IMG/VR virus record: IMGVR_UViG_3300020045_011830
Coordinates: 1 to 32,915 of that record
Length of the DNA stretch: 32,915 nucleotides
From: a virus
Lineage: Duplodnaviria; Caudoviricetes
Direction: 5' to 3' (one strand)
Shown: positions 2,698 to 30,447 of the stretch, piece by piece
Layout of the letters: each line of letters opens with the position of its first letter
Position numbering within the stretch: the first letter of the stretch is position 1
The notes under the pieces: model-generated
Told to the model about the DNA's origin: nothing
The model's database searches: none
What the model saw: the letters and a program-made list of their open reading frames with translations, nothing else
Position numbers and translations under genes: made by a program

Positions 2698-2916
2698 ATG
2701 TCATTACACGAGGATCTCACTAAAGAGGGATTGAACCCCCTCCGAATGCTCACGGCCACACTTTCGGAACTAGAGCCGGAAGCACGGGCTGACGCGCTGA
2801 TCAAACTCCTTGAGCTGATGTATCGTTATACGCCAAGCGATGAAGCCCTTGACCCCTCCAAGGATACCTCACTGAACGATTTCCTAACGAAACTGGATAA
2901 GTCCCAATGCAAGTAA
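2698..2916 (+). CDS. Small helical protein, possibly terminase small subunit-like
   Basis: 72 aa; GLNPL...ARADAL...YRYTP pattern shared with 10520-10804; overlaps start of next gene. Confidence 0.5.
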   Translation: MSLHEDLTKEGLNPLRMLTATLSELEPEARADALIKLLELMYRYTPSDEALDPSKDTSLNDFLTKLDKSQCK

Positions 2917-4352
2917 ATATCAGCCAGTTAATGAAAGACCTTGACAAGGAACTAAACGCGGCACTGAATGCCGGGAAGACTGACCTGGCGCTGCACATCC
3001 TCCAAACGAAAATTGCTCCACTGAACGCGGATCACCCCCATAACCCGGACATCCTGTACTACACTGGCACGGCGCTGATGCTGCTCAAAATGCCCGGTGT
3101 GGCTATCCCTTTGTTATTGCGTTGCCTGGACTACTCGCCCCGCCATTGGCAAGCGATGAACAACGTCGGATGCTGTTACAAACAACTTGGGAAGAATGAA
3201 CGGGCAAAAGAATTTTTCTTCGATGCCATGCGCCACGGTGGATCGCGAAACCCGGACCTCATGAACAATATTGGCGGCGTATTCACTACCGAGGGCGAAC
3301 CAGAACGCGCGATCATCTACGCCCGTGCGGCACACGAATACGCGGAAAAAGGCCAGCCTACCGCGCAGTACACATGGAATTTGGCCTTGGCGCTAATGGA
3401 ACTCGAAGATTGGGGTAAGGGGTTCCCCCTGTATGAATCCGGCATTCTCTCGAAAGATCGCGGGATCAAGCGCTACATGACCCGGCACGATAAGCTTATT
3501 CCACTGTGGGACCGGACGCCCGGAAAGCGCGTTATCCTCTGCTCTGAACAAGGTCTTGGCGACAATATTCTGTTCGCGTCCGCGTTCGAGTATGCCCATA
3601 AAGACATCCGCTTCTTGCTTGACTGTCATCCGCGACTATATACGCTGTTCCGTCGCAGCTTCCCGGATATCGAAATGTATAATACGTATAAAGCCGAACC
3701 GCCTTACGCCTGGTCAAAGGATCGAGAGTTCGATGCAACAGGAGGAATAGGAAGCTTGCTGGGGCTCTATCATCGTAGCGTCATAGACAAACCGCACCCC
3801 TACCTTGTCCCGGATCGCTGTAAAGTTGAGTACTGGAGACAGCGCTTGAAGTCCACCGGGCCAGGCCCGTACATCGGCTTTTCGTGGAAAGGCGGTACAC
3901 CCTACAGTGGGATCTGGTCGCGTAGTTTCTCGCCGAATGCCTACGATCCGCTGTTCGCTCTCGGTGGCCAGTGGTTCAGCGTGCAATACGATACGGTATC
4001 TGTTCAGGGCTTGAATCTCTCGAAATACGAAAATGTCCACCATTGGGCGGATGCGGTACAAACCTTTGACTACGACGATACGGCGGCTTTCATCAAGGCC
4101 CTGGATTACATCATTAGCCCACCTCAAGCGATTATCCACCTCGCGGGCGCGGTTGGGGTTCCCTGCATGGTGATGGTGCCTTTCGAGAGAGCGTGGCGGT
4201 ATCCGCGTGGGGATCGCATGTACTGGTACTCCAGCGTGAACCAAATCCACAAGCCAAAAGGCGTCACCTGGTCCGACTTCATCGCCGGGAAGGGCGTACA
4301 ACACATGAGGCAATTTATGATATTACACGATTCTATGAAGGTTTTAACATGA
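2907..4352 (+). CDS. TPR-repeat glycosyltransferase (GT-B fold, GT9-like)
   Basis: N-terminal TPR repeats (AMNNVGCCYKQLG, LMNNIGGVF); EQGLGDNILF, IGFSWKGG and ALDYII...IHLAGAVGVP motifs. Confidence 0.85.
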   Translation: MQVNISQLMKDLDKELNAALNAGKTDLALHILQTKIAPLNADHPHNPDILYYTGTALMLLKMPGVAIPLLLRCLDYSPRHWQAMNNVGCCYKQLGKNERAKEFFFDAMRHGGSRNPDLMNNIGGVFTTEGEPERAIIYARAAHEYAEKGQPTAQYTWNLALALMELEDWGKGFPLYESGILSKDRGIKRYMTRHDKLIPLWDRTPGKRVILCSEQGLGDNILFASAFEYAHKDIRFLLDCHPRLYTLFRRSFPDIEMYNTYKAEPPYAWSKDREFDATGGIGSLLGLYHRSVIDKPHPYLVPDRCKVEYWRQRLKSTGPGPYIGFSWKGGTPYSGIWSRSFSPNAYDPLFALGGQWFSVQYDTVSVQGLNLSKYENVHHWADAVQTFDYDDTAAFIKALDYIISPPQAIIHLAGAVGVPCMVMVPFERAWRYPRGDRMYWYSSVNQIHKPKGVTWSDFIAGKGVQHMRQFMILHDSMKVLT

Positions 4353-5011
4353 GAATAGCAATTGTAGGTAATGGCCCGAGCATTCTCGCCCATCCCGAAT
4401 ATGGGGAAATGATTGACAATCATGACAAGGTGATACGATTGAAGCGATGCGCGGCTACCCTGTCCTTACCCCTCCATTTCGGGTCTCGCACGGACATCAT
4501 CGCGGGCAGTATCGGGATCGCGCCCGAACTCTTGGACATCGGGAATAAGGATACCCACATATGGGTATTCACGGATAGTCGGCCCATGGCGCAAGAGGCT
4601 ATCAGGAGCGTAACGCAATTCATCTTTCAACAAAATAGAGTTGTTCGCTGTTTCAGTGATCTTTGCAACCAATTGGACGCGCGCTATCGAGACATGCGCA
4701 TTCCGTTCACGCCCGATGCGCAAACGGCACCCGTGGTAAATCTTGATGCGCCCATAGATGAAAACGGGCAAACGCTAGGACACAATCACACCTCGCAAGG
4801 GATGAAAGCGATTTGCTACGCGCTGCACCTATTGAGACCTGACAGGATCACTCTTTTCGGCTTCGACAACGTGAAAAACGGAACCTTCACATTCTCGCTT
4901 ACACGCGGGTTATCTCACCAGCGCTACCCCTTACACAACTGGCCCACGGAAAAGCTTCTGTTGGAAGCGATAGCGTTGGATCATCCTGACACGGAGATTG
5001 TATTCGCATGA
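4349..5011 (+). CDS. Glycosyltransferase, GT29 (sialyltransferase)-like
   Basis: ATGA-coupled start at 4349; IAIVGNGPS...IDNHDKVIRL (sialyl motif L-like) and TSQG...ITLFGFD (motif S-like). Confidence 0.75.
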   Translation: MRIAIVGNGPSILAHPEYGEMIDNHDKVIRLKRCAATLSLPLHFGSRTDIIAGSIGIAPELLDIGNKDTHIWVFTDSRPMAQEAIRSVTQFIFQQNRVVRCFSDLCNQLDARYRDMRIPFTPDAQTAPVVNLDAPIDENGQTLGHNHTSQGMKAICYALHLLRPDRITLFGFDNVKNGTFTFSLTRGLSHQRYPLHNWPTEKLLLEAIALDHPDTEIVFA

Positions 5012-6342
5012 AATTCATCACTTCAATTTCCTTGGCCGATTGGTTTCTTTACGGTCAGGAAACACTTTATAACCTGGATAAGAATCTGCCGATGAACGCG
5101 GCCTTTATCATCTACGCGGATGATCCGCTACCGCTGCCCAAACCATTTAGTCAGCGTGTCAGCGTGCGCCCGTATGTCCAGCCCGCCAGTATTTTGACTG
5201 AAATGGCCGCGCGTCTGCCCGTGTTTTCTGGCCGTATCGGCGGGAACTACGATTACCGGCATAACTATCGAGCATTCAGCCGCAAAGTGATGGCCATCCT
5301 GGAAACTCTCATGGCCGGTGAAACGGAAATGCTCTTCTGGATAGATGCGGATACCCGTTTTGTCACGCCGCCCCCCGCGACAGTTTTCGAGAGCTTTCTT
5401 GCGGAGCACCCTATTTGCGTGATGCAGCGCAACCAATGGCACCTGTGCAGCTCCTTTGTGGGGTTCAATCTAAAGGTGCCCGCCGTGATGGATTTCCTGG
5501 AACACTTTTGCTTACTCTACAGTAGCGGCCTGGTGCTCACGCTGCCACATTGGGATGATGCCGGTGTACTACATACCCTGCTATCCGAGAACCGCGATAC
5601 GATCCATGTGAAAGACCTGTCACCCCCCAATTTGCCGGAAGGCCCGGTTAACATTTTCGATATCGTGTTTGCCCAATATGGAGGGAATCATCTTAAGGGA
5701 AATATCAAGACCACCGCTACGCCGAGCTTACACCAGCCAAAACGATATAAGGTGATCACCGACACAGCGGCAGAACTGGGATTAGAGGGTGTCGGTAAGG
5801 TCTTCGTTGAAATCGGCACATGGAAGGGAGATCGCGCCGTGGATATCGCGAAAGCGTGTGGAACCAACTTTAAATATATTGGCTTTGATGTGTTTGAAAT
5901 GTACCCCGCCGCCCTCGATGCAATCGAAATGAACGCCAAGCCACATATCCCCATCGCGACAGTAAGAGACCGACTTAAGGCGGCAAATATTGATGCGGAA
6001 CTGATCCAGGGAAGCACACAAGATACACTCCCACTATACACGAGTAAGCACCAGAACTTTGCAGACCTGGTGTATATCGATGGCGGCCATTCCATGCAAA
6101 CGATCGTTCACGATTTGGAGTACGCGATGCGGATGGTCAAAGACACGGGTATCATCATCATGGACGACTATTACGAGGAATGCGATGAGGATACGATGTC
6201 TCGATTCGGTGCACAAACGGTATTGGGACTGCCTGGCGCTCCCCCTTATACCCTGTCCCCACCGGAGGGAGATTGGAAACGCGAAGGCGGAAAGATTAGA
6301 CTGGCCGTTATTCAAGGGAAACACTGCAAACATGGAACCTAA
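5008..6342 (+). CDS. Fusion of GT-A-like glycosyltransferase and class I SAM methyltransferase (Methyltransf_24-like)
   Basis: N-terminal FSRKV...WIDAD (DxD)...WDDA; C-terminal VEIGTWKG, YIDGGHS, GIIIMDDY. Confidence 0.8.
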   Translation: MKFITSISLADWFLYGQETLYNLDKNLPMNAAFIIYADDPLPLPKPFSQRVSVRPYVQPASILTEMAARLPVFSGRIGGNYDYRHNYRAFSRKVMAILETLMAGETEMLFWIDADTRFVTPPPATVFESFLAEHPICVMQRNQWHLCSSFVGFNLKVPAVMDFLEHFCLLYSSGLVLTLPHWDDAGVLHTLLSENRDTIHVKDLSPPNLPEGPVNIFDIVFAQYGGNHLKGNIKTTATPSLHQPKRYKVITDTAAELGLEGVGKVFVEIGTWKGDRAVDIAKACGTNFKYIGFDVFEMYPAALDAIEMNAKPHIPIATVRDRLKAANIDAELIQGSTQDTLPLYTSKHQNFADLVYIDGGHSMQTIVHDLEYAMRMVKDTGIIIMDDYYEECDEDTMSRFGAQTVLGLPGAPPYTLSPPEGDWKREGGKIRLAVIQGKHCKHGT

Positions 6343-7627
6343 AGTCTTGGCGGATGAAGTCGTCTACGCCTTCCCCGGTGGAACCGACATTGTAGAACCC
6401 TTCTGGAACACCGGAGGCACCACGCTGGTAGATATGGGGGGTGGAATTATTGTGTTGAGCGGTCAGATACCCATCGCCGACCCCACACAAACCTATGCCA
6501 ATCTCTACCCCACAATCTGGCGTCGCGATCATAATGGTTGGGAACAGATGCGCGTGGAAACCATGTTCGACACGAGGGAACCCGTGCCCCTGGCCAGACA
6601 CGGCGAGTCCATTTACGCTTACGAAAATCCTCTGCGCGTGGTGGATGGTAAAGGCGGAACGACACTACCGCACCTGGCACGATACGATAGTGAGGATACG
6701 GGCATCACTCCGGACTACATCCCCATTCCCTTTATCGCGGAACCACAAGCTCCCTTATTCACACTTTGGTCTTACCGTGGGATCGCGGTGGATCATTGCC
6801 AGAACACGCTGTTCTTGACGCAGCATACAGAGAACTATTACGCTTCCCTATATACGCTCATGACACCGACCGCTCAGAGTATTCGCACCGGCAAGATTGA
6901 TTACGTAAAGGAGTATTACATCACCGAACCGATGCGCGTGGCCTATCACTGTACGGCGATACACAATAACTTTGCCGTGGCGCTTGGGGTAACGGACATT
7001 TGGGAATATAACCCAGACTTCCTGGCCGTGCGTGGAAAATGGGCCTTTCGACGACTGATGTACACCTGGTCAACCAATCTTAGGGATTCACCCCTAAAAC
7101 CCTGGGTTGAACTCGACCGGGTTGAACAGTATGGCGGGCAGGTACAGCCGCTGGATATCTACCTGGATGATGATCACCGTGTTCACATTCTCTGGTATCG
7201 TGAGAGCATGGACGGCGGATTACAGAATGCGTTTTGGTCTGACATCCCGATCACCTACGAATTGAAATATGGGATCATAGAAAAAGGCGTCCTCATCCAC
7301 ACGCAAACGCTCTTGTATTACGATAACCGCGAAGGCAGATTTGGAGAGTATCCCGTTAAAGCCCGGTTCCAGATTACGCCAGAGAACCGCATTTTCGTTA
7401 TCTTCGGGGCTGGTGGTAGCGTGTACTCTTTGCATGGATACCGCTTCCGGTTAACGGAAATCACGGGATGCACGCACACGGAGCCGGTAACGCTCTGGAC
7501 AAGCGAATACTTCATTTTTAACTTTCAAAATACCAGCGTGCGTTCTGGCTCTCCAAAATCACGGATAGCTAATCTTGCCTTGTGGCAGGGCGGACAAGTG
7601 CGTTATCTCAGGATTCGGGTATGCTGA
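6332..7627 (+). CDS. Hypothetical protein, beta-rich (possible beta-propeller)
   Basis: ATG at 6332 overlapping the upstream gene end; 431 aa, aromatic-rich; inside the GT operon. Confidence 0.6.
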   Translation: MEPKVLADEVVYAFPGGTDIVEPFWNTGGTTLVDMGGGIIVLSGQIPIADPTQTYANLYPTIWRRDHNGWEQMRVETMFDTREPVPLARHGESIYAYENPLRVVDGKGGTTLPHLARYDSEDTGITPDYIPIPFIAEPQAPLFTLWSYRGIAVDHCQNTLFLTQHTENYYASLYTLMTPTAQSIRTGKIDYVKEYYITEPMRVAYHCTAIHNNFAVALGVTDIWEYNPDFLAVRGKWAFRRLMYTWSTNLRDSPLKPWVELDRVEQYGGQVQPLDIYLDDDHRVHILWYRESMDGGLQNAFWSDIPITYELKYGIIEKGVLIHTQTLLYYDNREGRFGEYPVKARFQITPENRIFVIFGAGGSVYSLHGYRFRLTEITGCTHTEPVTLWTSEYFIFNFQNTSVRSGSPKSRIANLALWQGGQVRYLRIRVC

Positions 7628-8130
7628 TCACGCCCGCGTATCTTGCCACGCAGAAGCGCGTGCATAAAGCACAGCCAGCATACGGGATAAGCAGCAAATG
7701 TGGCGTTGCCGCAGCCAAGCTCCTGCATGAAAGCTATGGCGTGGAAAGCATCATTGACTATGGTTGTGGGAAAGGAAGGCTAAAGATCCATTACCCCTAC
7801 GTCTCTATCACGGAATACGATCCTGCGATTGAGGGAAAGGATAACCCGAACCTCTGCCCGGCGGATGCGGTATTGTGCCATGATGTCATGGAGCATATAG
7901 AAGAACGTTGTTTACCTGACGTGATGCGGCATATGACCGCGTTGGCCCTCACGTATTTGTACCTGACCATTACCACGCGCCCGGCAAGAAAGATTCTTCC
8001 TGATGGCCGGAACGCGCACATTACGCTATGGACTCCCAAGGAATGGCTTACCTTCCTGGAGCAGTATTTGACGATTATTATGGAACGCGATGAGAATCAT
8101 GAACTCACTGTATTAGGGATACCTAAATGA
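7621..8130 (+). CDS. Class I SAM-dependent methyltransferase
   Basis: IIDYGCGKG motif I; CHDVMEHIE; DGRNAH. Confidence 0.85.
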   Translation: MLITPAYLATQKRVHKAQPAYGISSKCGVAAAKLLHESYGVESIIDYGCGKGRLKIHYPYVSITEYDPAIEGKDNPNLCPADAVLCHDVMEHIEERCLPDVMRHMTALALTYLYLTITTRPARKILPDGRNAHITLWTPKEWLTFLEQYLTIIMERDENHELTVLGIPK

Positions 8131-8807
8131 AAACGCTAAACATTTTTATCGGGATGGACAAGGATGAAATCCCAGCATATCACACGCTGTCAGATTCCTT
8201 GATCCGCTATTCGAGCCAGCCGCTGTCTATCTCGCCCATCAACCGGCGTATCTACAAAGAAGTTCTCTGGCGTCCGCGGACTACGCTGGAGAGTACGGAG
8301 TTCAGCACTGCCCGCTTTCTGGTGCCGTGGGCATCGGGCTATCGCGGGCTATCGCTCTTCATGGATTGTGACATGCTCTGTGTGGGCGATATCGCGGAAC
8401 TTTTCGAGGAGCAGGATATGCGCTGTGCGATCCAGGTCGTTAAAAAAGACCTCAAGGTGACAGCCACCACAAAAATGCTGAACGCAATCCAGACCGATTA
8501 TGCAAAGAAGTGTTGGTCCGCCGTGATGCTATTCAACAATGAACGTTGTAAGGCGCTTACACCGGATTATGTGGATAAGGCCAGTGGATTGACATTACAC
8601 CAGTTCAAATGGCTAACTTCCGACAGTCAGATAGGCACACTCTCGAAGCACTGGCAATACGTGATCCCGTATGATCCACCGGAAGACTTGCATGATGCGA
8701 AGATAGTTCACTTTACGGAAGGTGGCCCGTGGTGGAATAAGTATAAAGACATCCCATTTGCGGATGAATGGCGATCACATCATAAGCATATTGTGTGTGA
8801 TCCATGA
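8127..8807 (+). CDS. Glycosyltransferase, GT-A fold (GT8-like)
   Basis: STEFSTARFLVP, FMDCDML (DxD), WSAVMLFN, IVHFTEGGPW. Confidence 0.85.
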   Translation: MKTLNIFIGMDKDEIPAYHTLSDSLIRYSSQPLSISPINRRIYKEVLWRPRTTLESTEFSTARFLVPWASGYRGLSLFMDCDMLCVGDIAELFEEQDMRCAIQVVKKDLKVTATTKMLNAIQTDYAKKCWSAVMLFNNERCKALTPDYVDKASGLTLHQFKWLTSDSQIGTLSKHWQYVIPYDPPEDLHDAKIVHFTEGGPWWNKYKDIPFADEWRSHHKHIVCDP

Positions 8808-9313
8808 AAGTATCAAAGCAAGGAATTGAGTTTATACAACGGTTATCCACAAAGAACGGCGACCCGTTATTGTCCATTGGGAAAGACGCCTATGGCCAGC
8901 CTGTCATTGGCTATGGACATCGTATCCACATGGGCGAACGCAGCAAATGGGCGAACGGGCTGACGAAGGCTCAGGCCACAAAGATAATCAAGGATGATTT
9001 GCAGGGTATCGAGGAAGCGCTTGATCGGGAATCTTGGCCGTTCGTGTTACAGCAAAACGAATATGATGCCCTGGCAAGCCTGGCGTATAGCCTTGGTGGC
9101 GTATCTTTCATCGGGGTGAAAATGCGGCACAATATCAAGGCAGGAGATAAAAGCATTCTCGCGGAGGGCTTTTATACCCACACAAAGATCACAAAGGGCG
9201 GGAGCTACGTAAATAGCATAGATCTTATGAGTAGACGGCGTGCGGAAAGCCGGTTATTCTTACTAGGAGAGTATCATGGACAAGCCCCTGAACCCCCAAA
9301 GGGAAAGATATGA
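8804..9313 (+). CDS. GH24 lysozyme-like protein with apparently degenerate active site
   Basis: KVSKQGIEFI..., IGYGH, QNEYDALAS, RRRAE..LF motifs; expected catalytic Glu and Thr appear as Ser and Val. Confidence 0.7.
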   Translation: MKVSKQGIEFIQRLSTKNGDPLLSIGKDAYGQPVIGYGHRIHMGERSKWANGLTKAQATKIIKDDLQGIEEALDRESWPFVLQQNEYDALASLAYSLGGVSFIGVKMRHNIKAGDKSILAEGFYTHTKITKGGSYVNSIDLMSRRRAESRLFLLGEYHGQAPEPPKGKI

Positions 9314-13627: not shown

Positions 13628-14245
13628 TCACTCGTTCCAACCCTGTCCATAAAAGTAAGTAGTATCTTTGACCGCCTTCAAACAATACTCAAACGCTTCC
13701 GCGTATCCCTCGATTAATGGTGCTTTATCAAGACCATTGATGATGCGCCGGGCCTGGTAATAGTCGCATTTCTGCCCGGAAATGAACTGTGATAGGCGTG
13801 CGCCAGTGAAGAGGCCGTGTCGCATTCCATGGGACATGATCCAATAGGCATTGTCGGGCTGGAGGGCCTCGTCGGGATTGGCCCCCAAAGGCAAGCCCAG
13901 GGCGTTTCCCATCACCCGGTAGTTCCGTTTCCAGGTGAGCTGCACATACCCTCGGCCATAGTATTTGCGTCCTTGACTGTCGGCCACGCCATAAGATTTT
14001 CCCTTACCGCGTCCGATTTCCTCGATAGGGTGCCAGGTGTTCGCGCATTCGTGCTTGACTGTGGCGAGCATATACGCTGCCCATCGCGCGTCGGTCAAAT
14101 GGGGGTCAATCTCGAAGAACGTTAGCAATTCATTCAGGCCATCTACCTGTGGCTGCGACAGCGGTCCGAACTCATCGCGAAATCGGGTAAAAAAGCGATC
14201 TCGGTCAATGGACAGGGAACGAATTTCCGGTAGGGTCATAATCAA
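13628..14245 (-). CDS. GH19 (chitinase-like) endolysin
   Basis: AYMLATVKHE, YYGRGYVQLTWKRNY, ARRIINGLD. Confidence 0.9.
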   Translation of the reverse strand: MIMTLPEIRSLSIDRDRFFTRFRDEFGPLSQPQVDGLNELLTFFEIDPHLTDARWAAYMLATVKHECANTWHPIEEIGRGKGKSYGVADSQGRKYYGRGYVQLTWKRNYRVMGNALGLPLGANPDEALQPDNAYWIMSHGMRHGLFTGARLSQFISGQKCDYYQARRIINGLDKAPLIEGYAEAFEYCLKAVKDTTYFYGQGWNE

Positions 14246-22681: not shown

Positions 22682-23191
22682 TTAGTGGCGCTCCTGGCTG
22701 TTAGCGGAGTGCGGGGGACACTCCCCAGGAGCAATATCCCCAAAGTCCCCATCATAAACTTGTCTTTGGAACTTGTCAAGCAACGAATACGTGTAGTACT
22801 CGCCGCCCTCCCGCGATCCAGCCCACACGAACGGCATCATGTACCGCACCTGAAACGCGATGATGGACTGAAGGACAGCATGCGGACTCATCCGCGACAC
22901 GTAACGGTGGATGCGCACCGTGTCCACGGACGCTTCGATCACCACGGCCTTGCACACCTTCGACATCAGTCGCTCCAGCTCGCGCTCGAACCTGTCGCGG
23001 TTCTGCCCCATCAGGCACGACACCAGGTCATCCAGACTCTTTCGCTCAATCGCAATCTCCGCCTCCAGGCCAGGGAGAGAGTAGTCACCTTCGGGCAGCG
23101 CCACGCGCTCAATCTCTACTTCGCGTTTCTCGAAGAGGTAAGGTTTCTGCTCACGTGTGTCAACGAGGACCTTCAGAAGGGTGTTTTGCAT
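22682..23191 (-). CDS. ERCC4-domain nuclease
   Basis: VDTREQKP, GDYS, IERKSLDDL, RFERELER motifs. Confidence 0.9.
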   Translation of the reverse strand: MQNTLLKVLVDTREQKPYLFEKREVEIERVALPEGDYSLPGLEAEIAIERKSLDDLVSCLMGQNRDRFERELERLMSKVCKAVVIEASVDTVRIHRYVSRMSPHAVLQSIIAFQVRYMMPFVWAGSREGGEYYTYSLLDKFQRQVYDGDFGDIAPGECPPHSANSQERH

Positions 23192-23285: not shown

Positions 23286-23492
23286 TTATTTCAGCTGACT
23301 CATCATCTCGACAATGAGTTGCTCTAGATGCGCCATGCGCTCCAGCAGGTCTTGCTTGTCCTTGACGCACTCCAGGTGCCGCGCTTCCAGGAGCGACACG
23401 ATCCGCTGGAAGAGCCACCAGACGACACCGCCCAGGCTGGACACCGCAGCAACAAGGTGCGCGGGATCAATCGCGATGACGTCAGCCGACAT
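23286..23492 (-). CDS. Small membrane protein, holin-like
   Basis: 68 aa from ATG 23492; one TM helix followed by a coiled coil. Confidence 0.55.
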   Translation of the reverse strand: MSADVIAIDPAHLVAAVSSLGGVVWWLFQRIVSLLEARHLECVKDKQDLLERMAHLEQLIVEMMSQLK

Positions 23493-23507
23493 GGGTATCC
23501 CCGGGGG

Positions 23508-23775
23508 GGTCAATCCCCGCGTGTGCGGGGGAATCGCCAGGCTCAAGCCGAACACCGTGGAGTTTTGGGGTCGATCCCCGCGTGTGCGGGGGAATAGTGG
23601 TGACGTTCATTTGTTGCCAAAACCTCCAAGGTCAATCCCCGCGTGTGCGGGGGAATCCCGCGTGTGCGGGGGTATCTGCCGCATGGATAGGGTCAATCCC
23701 CGCGTGTGCGGGGGAATCCAGCCATTCTACCCCACTGCGGGGCTAAGAGTCAATCCCCGCGTGTGCGGGGGTATC
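23508..23775 (-). CRISPR. Type I-E-like CRISPR array A (5 repeats)
   Basis: 28-bp repeats GGTCRATCCCCGCGTGTGCGGGGGWATM at 23508, 23569, 23630, 23691, 23748 (last begins with A); three 33-bp spacers and one 29-bp interval; minus-strand 3' end GGGGATTGACC resembles I-E GGGGATAAACC. Confidence 0.95.
23724..23753 (-). promoter_or_regulatory. Promoter built from repeat end plus 29-bp pseudo-spacer
   Basis: TTGACT (23753-23748)-N18-TAGAAT (23729-23724), 5 bp before the next repeat. Confidence 0.6.
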
Positions 23776-24245
23776 TATGCGCCGTCCCCATTATCCGCCG
23801 TGGTGACGTTCATTTGTTGCCAAACCCTCCAACTTGAGTCTGGATAGGAAGTATTCTGCGCGGCACAGGTATACCCCTTGCTCGCCGCCTGGTAGGTCCC
23901 ACGGAAGAACAAGCTACCCCATCCTTGCGTCTGCACGGCCTTAGCCACGAAGGAGGCAGCGCTATACTCGCCAGGGCCTATTATGTAGCCCACAGATTTG
24001 ATACACGCATTCGTGGCCGGATGAAAACGCCAAAACCGGATCAAATACTGCTGCGAGTTGGTATTGTTTATGAACGTCTGAACGGTGATGAAATCATTAG
24101 CCAGGTCACAGGTGGTGGTATTTCCACACGACATCACGGGATCGGTAGTCGGATCTCCTGGGAAAAACCCCTGGTTCGGACCACAAGCCGCCAAGGCCGC
24201 AACGGAAAGGAAGAAGGAGAAGAACGCGCCGATCTTTTGAATCAT
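23775..24245 (-). CDS. Lipoprotein of unknown function between CRISPR repeats
   Basis: Signal peptide with lipobox LAAC; AGGAAG RBS; stop codon overlaps the repeat by one base. Confidence 0.8.
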   Translation of the reverse strand: MIQKIGAFFSFFLSVAALAACGPNQGFFPGDPTTDPVMSCGNTTTCDLANDFITVQTFINNTNSQQYLIRFWRFHPATNACIKSVGYIIGPGEYSAASFVAKAVQTQGWGSLFFRGTYQAASKGYTCAAQNTSYPDSSWRVWQQMNVTTADNGDGA

Positions 24246-24277
24246 GGTTACACTTCCTGAAAAGTTATTAATCCGCG

Positions 24278-24306
24278 ATTATCCCATAAGCCCCGTGGGG
24301 CGTCAA
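24278..24306 (-). promoter_or_regulatory. Sigma70-like promoter of the lipoprotein gene
   Basis: TTGACG-N17-GATAAT with extended TG; palindrome GCCCCACGGGGC in the spacer. Confidence 0.65.
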
Positions 24307-24315
24307 CCCTTAGAC

Positions 24316-24512
24316 GGTCAATCCCCGCGTGTGCGGGGGTATCTTGGCTTGCTCCGATTTCAAATCGACGCAAGATGGTCGATCCCCGCGTGTGCGGGGG
24401 TATCAATCTCTACTTCGCGTTTCTCGAAGAGGTACGGGGTCAATCCCCGCGTGTGCGGGGGTATCTATCCAGGAGATCGGCTCAGAATTGAGCCAAGGGG
24501 TCGATCCCCGCG
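24316..24512 (-). CRISPR. Type I-E-like CRISPR array B (3 full repeats and 1 half repeat)
   Basis: Repeats ending GGTATC at 24316, 24377, 24438; 14-bp partial repeat at 24499; three 33-bp spacers; exact 61-bp period. Confidence 0.95.
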
Positions 24513-24577
24513 AGCACAAACAGCCACCGGGGGTCCAGACCCTGTTCCTTCATCACGTCCAGCACCAGGATTTCCAT
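24482..24577 (-). CDS. Possible 31-aa peptide running through the half repeat
   Basis: TGATG coupling to the upstream gene; MEILVLDVMKEQGLDPRWLFVLAGIDPLAQF*. Confidence 0.3.
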   Translation of the reverse strand: MEILVLDVMKEQGLDPRWLFVLAGIDPLAQF

Positions 24578-25569
24578 CAATCGAAAATGCCCAGCTTCTG
24601 CGGAGGCTCTTTCCCACGCAATATGGTCTCATACTCTGGGCGATCCAGACTCAAGAAAGGGTGCTTGGCGCGTCGTGTCGCCGCATCCATCCACATGCGA
24701 GCCTCGACTGCCCTGGCTTCCATTTCTCCCGCCAGACGCTTGTAGAGTTCGTGTTTCGTTAGCCATTTCGGCAGCAAGGGGTTTCGCCGGGCGTAGTTTC
24801 CTAGCTCTGGATCGGATGGGGATCCGCCACGCTCAAAGCCCTCGTACCGTTGCACGCGATGCTGTAGTTCGTGGAGCAAGGTCTTTCGCCGGTCGAGCCC
24901 CTCGACGGGTTTCGACGACATCGCCATACTGCCTTCGCCCGCTGCCCCACGCACGCCCGGTGGTAGCTCCTTGATATACACGGGGTAGTCCTTGAGGAAC
25001 GGGTACTGCTTGAAGAGTTCGGGATGATCCAGCAGATTTTTTGCGTAGAACACGCCAGGCTTCATCTCGCCCGTGGCCGGGATCTTAAACTTTGCCTTGG
25101 AATCGTCAATCTCAAACCGCCACTGGTCATCCAGCCCCTTATGCCAGCCAGTCTTTGCCGCGACTTCCTCCCGCGAGAACTTCTTAGCCAGGGCCTCTAT
25201 CGCCTCTGCTCGCTCCCGCAAGGGCGCTTTCTCTGCCTTCGCTCCCGCGAATATGGCCGCTAGGGCACCGGAGAAGCCCTTAGCGCCCGCCTTGAGCTCC
25301 ATGGTAGGGTCAGGTGAGAGTAACCCACCACCCAGGTGTAAGGCCTTCTCTCCCGTCGTTTCTGGGGTAACTGTCGCCAAGAACTTACCCATCTGGTCCT
25401 TTATCCACTCAGACCCCCCCACGGACTTCTCGACCGGCGCCTGGCCGTCCACCATCCGCACCAGGTTCATCAGGGCCTGCATGGCGTCCACGGGCAGGCC
25501 AGCGGTTCCCGCCAGGGATTCGTTGATGCCAGAGCCCAGGAGGCCCAGGGATTTGTCGGCGGATGGCAT
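24577..25569 (-). CDS. LPD23-like polyvalent-domain protein
   Basis: TGWHKGLDDQWRFEIDDS, HPELFKQYP, LLHELQHRVQRYEGFERGG, LAGEMEAR; GAGGA RBS. Confidence 0.8.
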   Translation of the reverse strand: MPSADKSLGLLGSGINESLAGTAGLPVDAMQALMNLVRMVDGQAPVEKSVGGSEWIKDQMGKFLATVTPETTGEKALHLGGGLLSPDPTMELKAGAKGFSGALAAIFAGAKAEKAPLRERAEAIEALAKKFSREEVAAKTGWHKGLDDQWRFEIDDSKAKFKIPATGEMKPGVFYAKNLLDHPELFKQYPFLKDYPVYIKELPPGVRGAAGEGSMAMSSKPVEGLDRRKTLLHELQHRVQRYEGFERGGSPSDPELGNYARRNPLLPKWLTKHELYKRLAGEMEARAVEARMWMDAATRRAKHPFLSLDRPEYETILRGKEPPQKLGIFD

Positions 25570-25860: not shown

Positions 25861-26162
25861 GTGATACCAAGTGATACCAAGTGGCATACCATGAGAAACT
25901 ACATTAAGAATCATCGCTAAGTAGCAGTTAAGGGCTTTTGTTTTTTACTACTAATACCACTAATACCACTAATACCAAGTACTTTAAAGTTTATATAGAG
26001 AGAGAAACAGAAATATATATATCTCCCCCAGGAGTAATTTGGAGGTTTTTGCTGGTTTTCGTGAGGTACTTGGTTAGAGCAAGCTGTGGCGCGGACTTGG
26101 GGGGTGGGGGTACTTGGTATGCCACTTGGTATGCCACTTGGTATTAGTGGTATTAGTGGTAT
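25861..26162. repeat. Convergent iteron arrays flanking an AT-rich core; putative replication origin
   Basis: Six ATACCA units on + (25864-25977) and five TGGTAT units (26115-26162); AT-rich core ~25981-26023; directly downstream of primase-helicase. Confidence 0.75.
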
Positions 26163-28402: not shown

Positions 28403-28600
28403 ATATTTTCCCTTTTCCCAAACGGTGGTGGCAGATAAAAGGGCGGGCCAGCGTTTGGGATACTGGCCCGTTACTGCGGGTACGTTGAAGTGTTTGCCCT
28501 GGTTAGACGTCCAGTTGTTCAGTTGTCTAAGCTGAACTGGCAAGACGAATAATCTCTTATTTTCGTGTCCGTGTCAAGTCATTTCTTAGCTCACGCAGTG

Positions 28601-28628
28601 TTGACAACTTTCTAAACTATGTTATACT
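28601..28628 (+). promoter_or_regulatory. Early promoter, copy 1
   Basis: TTGACA-N16-TATACT with extended TG; 34/43 identical to 30367-30409. Confidence 0.75.
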
Positions 28629-28667
28629 GTAATCACAGTATCCGATTAACCCAAAGAGGACAACAGA

Positions 28668-28985
28668 ATGAACGCAAAACTTATAGAAGCCGCACAAGAG
28701 CGCATCATAAGATTATCCGCCGTGGTCACTGACAATGCTCGTGAACAAAAGGAGCTCACCAGTGAAATACGTGGCCTGAAGGCGCTCATTCGCAAGCTCG
28801 AAAAAGGGATCGTACCAAAGACGGGGTTAATCACCGTGCTGTATTCGAGTATTGGCCTGGTGGATCAAGAGCAGGATGATGTTGAGCGCGTCGTCTTGAT
28901 GGCGTGGATCGTATGGAATATCGTTGCGATGCAACAAGCAAAAGCACGTTCGTTGTTCTGCAACTGTTGGAGTGTGGATGGCTAG
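28668..28985 (+). CDS. Hypothetical protein with N-terminal coiled coil
   Basis: GAGGA RBS downstream of the promoter. Confidence 0.6.
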   Translation: MNAKLIEAAQERIIRLSAVVTDNAREQKELTSEIRGLKALIRKLEKGIVPKTGLITVLYSSIGLVDQEQDDVERVVLMAWIVWNIVAMQQAKARSLFCNCWSVDG

Positions 28986-29097: not shown

Positions 29098-30030
29098 ATG
29101 AGTAAAGAAATCAGTTTTCCTGTTCTATTGCAAAAGACCTTGCCGGAAATTGCAAAAGCCTTGCCGAAACATCTTACGGCAGAGCGCATGGGGCGCATTG
29201 CGCTGACCGCCTTCCGACAGAACCCGGCGCTTGCGGAGTGCGATCCAATGTCGATCATCGCGTGTGTTGTGCAGTCCGCGCAACTGGGTCTGGAGCTGGG
29301 GGTTAGCGGGCATGCTTTCCTTGTGCCGTATAACGGACGGTGCCAATTTGTTCCCGGCTGGCGTGGGCTGGTGGACCTGGTGAGCCGCGCGGGACGTAGC
29401 TCTGTCCACACGGGAGTAATCCATCAGGGGCAAGAGTATCGCTACACGCAAGGGGCAAGGCCGGACCTGGCGATCCTTACGGAGTCGGATGAGGATAAGC
29501 CGATCATCTACGCGTATGCCGTGGGTTGGGTAAAAGGCGCGGAATGGCCTGTCATCGAGATGTGGAGTGCCGAGAAACTCATGAAGCACCGCGACAGGTA
29601 TAACAAGGTAGGGAAGCGACACTACTCCTACGCGAACTGGGAAATGTACTGTCGCAAAGTTGTTTTGCTCCAGGTGTTAAAGTACATGCCTTCGTCCGTG
29701 GAGTTGTCAACGGCGATAGCGCTGAACGACGCAGCTGAAGTGGGTAATCAAGGCGTAACCGTGGAAGGAGCAATTGACTGGTCCTGGACGCCCCCTGAGC
29801 GCGATGAAATAGGTGCGCCGGATGGGAGTGAGCCATCCTCGACAAGAGAGGGCGTGAAGGTCGCGTATGCGGGAGAAATCCAGGCCATCAAGGAGCATTT
29901 GGGGATGGGTGATGTAGCCGAGGCTAAGCGGCTTTGGGCGGCGATCCCGCAAGCGGACCAGATTCAATTATGGGTCGCCCCGACCAAAGGCGGGTGTTTT
30001 ACAACGGAAGAGCGTGAGCAGTTGAGGTGA
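29098..30030 (+). CDS. recT: RecT-family single-strand annealing recombinase
   Basis: IAKALPKHLTAERM, CDPMS...SAQLGLE, AFLVPY, GWRGLVDL, WEMYCRKVV; GAGGA RBS. Confidence 0.92.
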   Translation: MSKEISFPVLLQKTLPEIAKALPKHLTAERMGRIALTAFRQNPALAECDPMSIIACVVQSAQLGLELGVSGHAFLVPYNGRCQFVPGWRGLVDLVSRAGRSSVHTGVIHQGQEYRYTQGARPDLAILTESDEDKPIIYAYAVGWVKGAEWPVIEMWSAEKLMKHRDRYNKVGKRHYSYANWEMYCRKVVLLQVLKYMPSSVELSTAIALNDAAEVGNQGVTVEGAIDWSWTPPERDEIGAPDGSEPSSTREGVKVAYAGEIQAIKEHLGMGDVAEAKRLWAAIPQADQIQLWVAPTKGGCFTTEEREQLR

Positions 30031-30363: not shown

Positions 30364-30373
30364 CTGCGCAGCA

Positions 30374-30401
30374 TTGACAACTTATCAAACAATGCTATAC
30401 T
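30374..30401 (+). promoter_or_regulatory. Early promoter, copy 2
   Basis: TTGACA-N16-TATACT with extended TG. Confidence 0.75.
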
Positions 30402-30447
30402 TTAATTACGAACAGAAAATAGTCTTACTAACCATAGGAGCATTTCA

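Follow-up and report, generated by a model that had tools for sequence, protein, structure and literature searches.

Setting and layout of the array

The window analysed here is the whole of record IMGVR_UViG_3300020045_011830, a linear contig of 32,915 bases with a CheckV completeness of 52%. PHROGs and Pfam searches revealed a P22-like portal, capsid, terminase, primase, RecT (29098-30030) and two lysis enzymes. The capsid, portal, terminase and primase genes, together with the presence of the record in a virus collection, indicate a viral origin for the contig bearing the array. The closest capsid of a named phage is 46% identical to that of the contig. No integrase was found on the contig and Rfam gave no match. 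Plus-strand blocks interrupt the structural genes, and the lysis enzymes (phage lysozyme and GH19) are encoded on opposite strands at 8804-9313 and 13628-14245. One block (2907-8807) groups a TPR protein, a GT29 sialyltransferase-like glycosyltransferase and two methyltransferases, and is possibly a particle or surface modification module. Directly downstream of the primase gene, a perfect 27-nt inverted repeat made of 9-bp tandem units (25946-25980 / 26136-26162, 155 nt apart) is a candidate replication origin. Two similar 43-nt stretches (79%; 28594-28636 and 30367-30409) with near-consensus sigma-70 boxes before the RecT/small-ORF region are likely early promoters.

A CRISPR array was located between an LPD23-domain gene and an ERCC4-type nuclease gene. 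In agreement with the preliminary description, eight full 28-bp repeats (starts at 23508, 23569, 23630, 23691, 23748, 24316, 24377 and 24438) and a half repeat lie among phage genes. The spacer length of 33 bp given there applies to six of the seven short spacers, the other one having 29 nt (23719-23747), and the unit period is 61 nt in six of the seven short units. The division into two sub-arrays is real: they are 540 bp apart and the gap holds a promoter-like site and a 156-aa ORF. The repeat ends, by contrast, do not differ cleanly by sub-array as had been proposed, the repeat at 23748 being of the GTATC type and the eight repeats falling into five variants. Read along the array, the elements are the following.

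24577..25569, minus strand: LPD23-domain gene, upstream neighbour of the array (domain search)
24482..24577, minus strand: coding stretch of 31 codons, whose start overlaps the LPD23 stop and which runs into the half repeat (codon score)
24499..24512, minus strand: R0, half repeat, 3' stem arm and handle (read in the sequence)
24466..24498, minus strand: S1, 33 nt, self-hairpin, without a convincing target (folding, target scans)
24438..24465, minus strand: R1, full repeat (repeat comparison)
24405..24437, minus strand: S2, 33 nt, matching the phage's own ERCC4-nuclease gene at 32/33 (self-comparison)
24377..24404, minus strand: R2, full repeat (repeat comparison)
24344..24376, minus strand: S3, 33 nt, self-hairpin, target not found (folding, target scan)
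24316..24343, minus strand: R3, full repeat, bounding the gene insert on the left (repeat comparison)
24278..24306, minus strand: sigma-70-like promoter, 10/12 with TG and a spacing of 17 nt, oriented towards the lipoprotein gene and the second sub-array (motif scan)
23775..24245, minus strand: 156-aa ORF with a signal-peptide-like start and LAAC (predicted lipoprotein)
23748..23775, minus strand: R4, full repeat, 27/28 identical to R3, variant last base (repeat comparison)
23719..23747, minus strand: S5, short spacer, 29 nt (read in the sequence)
23691..23718, minus strand: R5, full repeat (repeat comparison)
23658..23690, minus strand: S6, exactly 33 nt, with 14 unique bases and then the start (19 bases) of a GATAC-type repeat
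23630..23657, minus strand: R6, full repeat (repeat comparison)
23597..23629, minus strand: S7, 33 nt, matching the phage's own lipoprotein gene at 32/33 (self-comparison)
23569..23596, minus strand: R7, full repeat (repeat comparison)
23536..23568, minus strand: S8, 33 nt, target not found (target scan)
23508..23535, minus strand: R8, full repeat, array end (repeat comparison)
23493..23507, minus strand: 15-nt remnant resembling the repeat, between R8 and the start codon that follows (read directly)
23286..23492, minus strand: 68-aa ORF with a hydrophobic segment, downstream neighbour of the array, no homologue (homology searches)
22682..23191, minus strand: ERCC4-type nuclease gene, PF02732 (Pfam/PHROGs and relatives)

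The bases upstream of R0 can stand in as the missing 5' arm, with a weak folding score (z -1.9). The claim that the 33 kb hold no cas gene was borne out: cas families gave no match among 49 contig ORFs with PHROGs and Pfam or among 36 ORFs with PADLOC, and a six-frame search for Cas6e, Cas1 and Cas7 found none. "Cas-less" applies to the sequenced portion only, about 52% of the genome.

The array has neither an adjacent cas operon on the contig nor a non-coding leader. At the place of the leader, the DNA upstream of the half repeat is coding-like: the first 13 codons after the ATG of the 31-codon stretch outscore all 17,057 stop-free wrong-frame windows. No family was found for this stretch. 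A resemblance to the start of a helix-turn-helix protein suggested a candidate assignment, which received no support in family searches. The 31-codon piece and the 68-aa ORF share a 7-bp motif in frame, with no homologue or empty site found; one idea is that the two could be halves of one gene.

Repeat family and the host question

On the minus strand, each repeat shows a 6-bp stem, a 4-nt loop and then the handle AUYGACC plus the first spacer base. This is type I-E geometry, for which the E. coli repeat served as the reference for stem, loop and 8-nt handle. A loose version of the repeat pattern was detected in at least 125 genomic loci of many phyla (18 of the 64 parts of the genome collection), and 25 ORFs from seven loci carrying related repeats were analyzed for neighbouring cas genes. 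I-E cas genes adjoin the repeats in three of these loci (L039, L043 and L007) and cas3 in a fourth (L050); cas genes were absent from the fetched flanks of L079, L025 and L040, and no other subtype appeared above the cut-off. The L007 array lies behind cas2 and runs in the direction that corresponds to the minus strand of the phage array. The Methylococcus capsulatus repeat stands three mismatches from that of the phage. The type I-E assignment of the preliminary description is thus supported indirectly, by I-E cas genes beside repeats one to three mismatches away, and so is the predicted AUYGACC-N handle, by the I-E repeat family and the repeat geometry.

The spacers of the repeat family are compatible with this assignment. 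The first base of 3,913 host spacers of 33 nt is C in 1,823 cases, G in 1,068, T in 921 and A in 101, whereas A occurs 580-853 times at positions 2, 3 and 33. Such a depletion fits a first base derived from the PAM, as described for type I-E in the available text of PMC4762764. We infer that the PAM of the family is probably of the AAN type; its derivation from the host spacers of the family gave no result.

Off-target integration by Cas1-Cas2 yields so-called neo-CRISPR units, in which the repeats are duplicated from a local phage site. The phage array does not fit this origin, its repeats being one mismatch from chromosomal I-E repeats.

The repeat had been expected to identify the host, and this expectation failed. 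The exact repeat had no match in IMG/VR, in a genome set of 185,579 species or in JGI metagenomes, and the pattern with the GATAC end had none in metagenomes. Repeats with one mismatch were found in eight fetched loci (Caldilineaceae, Dehalococcoidia, Myxococcota, Azospirillaceae, Acetobacteraceae and an unclassified bacterium) and thus span Chloroflexota, Myxococcota and Alphaproteobacteria. With no exact copy anywhere scanned and one-mismatch copies in several phyla, the repeat does not name the host. The named relatives of the phage ERCC4 protein are from Desulfobacterota, and for this reason the repeat was sought in 401 genomes from the phylum to which the Thermodesulfatator genome G001 belongs; none held it within one mismatch. 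Among the matches listed for the 3,973 spacers from the fetched arrays, none extended over more than 19 nt of the phage.

Spacers matching the array's own surroundings

Comparison of the spacers with the contig revealed two near-targets, both on the strand of the array (guide positions are counted on the 32-nt guide).

23111..23143, minus strand: own near-target of S2 in the ERCC4 gene, 32/33, silent mismatch at guide position 2, PAM positions AAC
23800..23832, minus strand: own near-target of S7 in the lipoprotein gene, 32/33, mismatch at guide position 7, PAM positions AGT

A self-match of 32/33 is expected by chance at about 1e-13 per spacer, and at the peptide level only S2 and S7 matched proteins of the phage significantly; the remaining spacers had no match with fewer than 11 mismatches elsewhere in the contig, outside the array. 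The S2 mismatch falls on the third base of Pro17, a proline invariant in 10 aligned proteins, and the allele of the phage itself has the rarer codon (49 vs 107). The S7 mismatch changes one residue. The S7 target has a non-canonical PAM; the spacer may have slipped, since an AAG lies one base further up. Both mismatches lie within the I-E seed, which comprises positions 1-5, 7 and 8 in the available text of PMC4678831. The S2 and S7 targets lie 365 and 25 nt from a repeat, a closeness with a chance probability of 0.002 in a rough, after-the-fact estimate. The array thus has own target copies that are mutated and near to it, as the available text of PMC6858448 describes for virus-borne arrays.

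In E. coli, single seed mismatches often still permit interference or plasmid loss, and AAC served as PAM for one spacer (PMC4678831, available text). S2 may consequently still strike the phage itself, and by this analogy it may carry a cost or need an anti-CRISPR. No sister phage with a perfect S2 or S7 target was found in the collections. Nine of ten phage proteins looked up were present in the cluster collection, all nine as singletons, and the closest listed ERCC4 relative is 66% identical.

The two self-matches could also be regulatory, S2 and S7 parking Cascade on the ERCC4 and lipoprotein genes of the phage itself to damp them, while a putative anti-Cas3 protein blocks cleavage. The S2 target, 49-81 nt into the ERCC4 gene and behind an AAC motif, is compatible with such a role, and a single seed mismatch may still permit binding according to the part of PMC4678831 cited above. 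Against it, both targets are within coding regions instead of promoters, that of S7 being at the 3' end of its gene with AGT, and the regulatory guides described in the available text of 10.1101/2023.03.03.530964 are short partial matches to promoters. No Acr was identified either, in searches made without a dedicated Acr library. We regard self-regulation as very unlikely.

An assembly chimera, in which a phage contig would have been joined with host CRISPR reads, is extremely improbable. The locus is known from a single contig, a linear fragment without relatives, as a chimera might be. A chimera would however require four separate junctions between array and phage, none of which lies at a spacer-protospacer overlap; the S6-R6 junction is foreign to a normal repeat and one base off a microhomology product; and both self-matches differ from their spacer by one base.

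The repeat piece of S6 is in the orientation of the array. Among 3,913 regular host spacers none contains 12 or more repeat bases, and only two irregular spacers (50 and 60 nt) do so among 3,986. A microhomology slip would leave 20 repeat bases where 19 are observed. In the simplest reading of these lengths, S6 would have been measured out by Cas1-Cas2 from another array of the same repeat type. DNA in and around arrays is a spacer hotspot in Pyrococcus furiosus and E. coli (available text of PMC5737086), so S6 may be a by-product of such sampling. Its seed lies in the unique part, and an S6 guide would therefore match only arrays carrying that spacer, which is missing from the phage's own array. 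The donor array was not found in a metagenome pattern scan or a 17-mer scan; the latter gave two matches (22/33 and 20/33), both without a repeat.

S6 can be read otherwise. Its repeat piece folds into a 5-bp stem with the first base of the next repeat, and Cas6e might for that reason release a short guide instead. The array could also act as an anti-CRISPR RNA of the Racr or Cracr kind, which floods or reprogrammes host Cascade. S6 can be taken as a guide of 13 nt with a 5-bp pseudo-hairpin at its end, S5 is short, promoter-like and holds a -10-like hexamer, and short-spacer I-E Cracr arrays are known from phages (10.1101/2024.10.29.618823, available text). Yet the repeats are canonical and all but one of the seven spacers have full length, as opposed to the Cracr spacers of 21-24 nt in that text. 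In the 969 kb of fetched loci, which need not include the host, no PAM-flanked seed match of S5 or S6 reached the threshold for listing. These features make an anti-CRISPR RNA quite unlikely.

The other spacers were less informative. S1 and S3 form strong self-hairpins (z -2.7 and -2.9; 2 of 200 shuffles as good), which would hamper the guides and are unusual for working ones. S3 and S8 had no match in the spacer-target scan. A 20-mer of S1 had one match, with 24 contiguous bases of 33, in an unrelated phage, within a gene encoding over 1,860 aa (L132, 2999-3031). That phage has no array and showed no further similarity in the 19.9 kb compared; the match lacks an AAN PAM and is due to chance or marks a distant relative of the true target. 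Altogether, the five spacers other than S2 and S7 had no convincing target in phages or plasmids, in scans of which those of IMG/VR covered S1, S3, S6 and S8.

Repeat mosaic, insert and proposed role

The 540-bp insert between R3 and R4 consists of a promoter and the gene targeted by S7. The promoter-like site at 24278..24306 begins nine bases after R3; the scan returned 10 sites in 5.4 kb vs 3.6 expected. The 156-aa ORF has a coding-like codon use (z 4.2), the average GC of the phage, and a LAAC which we take to be lipobox-like; its stop codon takes the first base of R4. Two large searches found no homologue, with one match at E 8e-4 to a 2,252-aa repetitive protein, the Atlas matches were all under 0.9, and a single-sequence model was unusable (pLDDT 37). 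Since S7 derives from a near-identical allele, the lipoprotein gene likely belongs to the phage's own lineage. Given that R3 and R4 are 27/28 identical, it is flanked by direct repeats in a phage which encodes RecT. Mobility of this cassette and a role of the lipoprotein in superinfection exclusion are conjectures.

A second promoter-like site (23753-23724, 10/12) spans S5 and the end of R4 and exists because S5 is short and R4 gives the -35 box. In both promoter-like sites the -35 and -10 boxes enclose a GCCCC...GGGG palindrome, possibly a shared operator. The end of the lipoprotein gene (23790-23804) matches a small ORF (28712-28726) exactly over 15 nt, which is within chance (E 0.03).

The eight phage repeats include five variants. 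Of 570 host blocks of eight, by comparison, 548 have a single variant and 22 have two, counted on repeats fitting the core pattern. The 16-nt stem-loop is invariant in all eight and the four variable positions all lie outside it (p about 0.024). Many variants around an intact stem-loop fit an assembly by recombination in which the processing hairpin has been retained. A recombinational origin has been proposed for phage mini-arrays (available text of PMC6858448 and PMC7099407), and we infer that the homology of phage and host repeats is what lets this region both supply spacers and take them up.

These observations bear on whether the array has any current role. It might be a relic, made of host anti-phage spacers picked up via repeat recombination after escape by point mutation. 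The two targets identified are indeed genes of the phage itself with changes resembling escape, a coding stretch appears to have been broken by the insertion, several units are irregular (the 29-nt S5, the half repeat, the remnant tail) and homology-driven, array-linked spacer hotspots have been described (available text of PMC5737086). The conservation of the stem-loop in all eight repeats while other positions vary argues against a relic, as do promoter-like sites which face the array; furthermore, a 1-kb tract of direct repeats in a RecT phage should be deleted unless it is selected. A relic is in our view unlikely.

We propose instead, with a probability of about 0.65, that this is a leaderless I-E array which would be processed by host Cas6e and would direct host Cascade-Cas3 against co-infecting sister phages. 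The use of host Cascade in inter-virus conflict, suggested in the preliminary description, receives indirect support from S2 and S7, which nearly match own genes adjacent to the array with mismatches in the seed. Two guides one base off the neighbouring genes of the phage suggest that host machinery is likely borrowed against close relatives while the phage itself is mostly spared. In the proposed scheme, the minus strand of the array would be transcribed by read-through from the LPD23 gene and from the two promoter-like sites, and the transcript would be cut by host Cas6e into 61-nt crRNAs. The phage guides would then steer Cascade-Cas3 onto the sister phages, single seed mismatches likely blunting self-attack at the own S2 and S7 targets. 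The array would grow by recombination through its repeats, with the phage RecT, and not by integration at a leader end; its spacers would be sampled from DNA around the array of a sister phage, which would explain S2, S7 and the repeat-containing S6. A more elaborate reading is speculative and rather doubtful: the array would serve as a CRISPR-versus-CRISPR weapon and a gene-shuffling platform, S6, taken from the array of a rival phage, guiding Cascade to the spacer-repeat junction there and so cutting only the carriers of that spacer, RecT swapping or excising the R3-R4 cassette in an integron-like manner and S7 destroying kin with another allele of the cassette.

Cas-less viral arrays steering host Cascade are a kind known since 2019. 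The comparisons that follow are limited to the available text of the reports cited. Like the mini-arrays of Medvedeva et al. 2019 (PMC6858448), the array is on a virus, no cas genes are seen with it, and it lies near its targets, whose own copies are mutated; like the phage mini-arrays of Faure et al. 2019 (cases taken via PMC6858448, PMC7099407 and PMC11656645), it has no host-type leader, and leaderless phage mini-arrays are described in PMC6858448 and PMC7099407. It differs from the mini-arrays of PMC6858448 in having seven spacers instead of one or two, in being split by a promoter and a lipoprotein gene targeted by one spacer, in its five repeat variants and a spacer from a repeat junction, and in that rival virus and host were not found in the collections searched. 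With seven spacers it exceeds the strict definition of a mini-array, one or two spacers (PMC11656645).

Longer arrays have precedents, with 297 cas-less viral arrays of three or more repeats in 10.1101/2023.03.03.530964 and multi-spacer prophage arrays already known (PMC4173771). The cas-less prophage arrays of Clostridioides difficile (PMC4173771) are likewise multi-spacer, among phage genes and presumably processed by host Cas proteins; they belong to another system and repeat family and match known host arrays, whereas here no integrase was found on the contig and no host was found. The Cracr and Racr units (10.1101/2024.10.29.618823, PMC11656645) are also phage repeat units using host Cas proteins, with I-E examples in arrays. 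Their features, either short spacers with degenerate repeats or a solitary repeat, are missing from an array of eight canonical repeats with six of seven spacers full length, S5 and the alternative reading of S6 being the exceptions. Cracr spacers match cas promoters, unlike the two mapped here, which hit phage coding regions. As in spacer hotspots (PMC5737086), S2, S6 and S7 apparently come from DNA in or around an array; those described there are newly acquired in chromosomal arrays, whereas here one is fixed in a phage array. Particular to this locus is the combination of a leaderless mosaic array, split by a gene that is also targeted, with an array-derived spacer. No paper on repeat-containing spacers or gene-interrupted phage arrays was found with exact phrases in an open library.

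In this bacterial I-E case a single kilobase is enough to follow the origin of spacers, escape mutation and leaderless growth. The value of the locus lies in this compactness and is limited by its being one contig, without host or rival phage. Why viral spacers target DNA beside the array was left open in the available text of PMC6858448. Here three spacers point to the neighbourhood of the array, and one of them to an array, which makes a model of repeat-homology hotspots testable. If S6 is a working guide, phages target one another's CRISPR arrays.

In viruses, the loose repeat pattern was detected at three loci, none with a similar array. Another IMG/VR contig of 35 kb opens with two repeats of the same I-E family, 61 nt apart (L001, 1-89). 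An intergenic stretch of Saccharomonospora phage PIS 136 resembles the repeat family of the phage (L137, 1501-1646), and this phage is among those named with mini-arrays in the available text of 10.1101/2023.03.03.530964.
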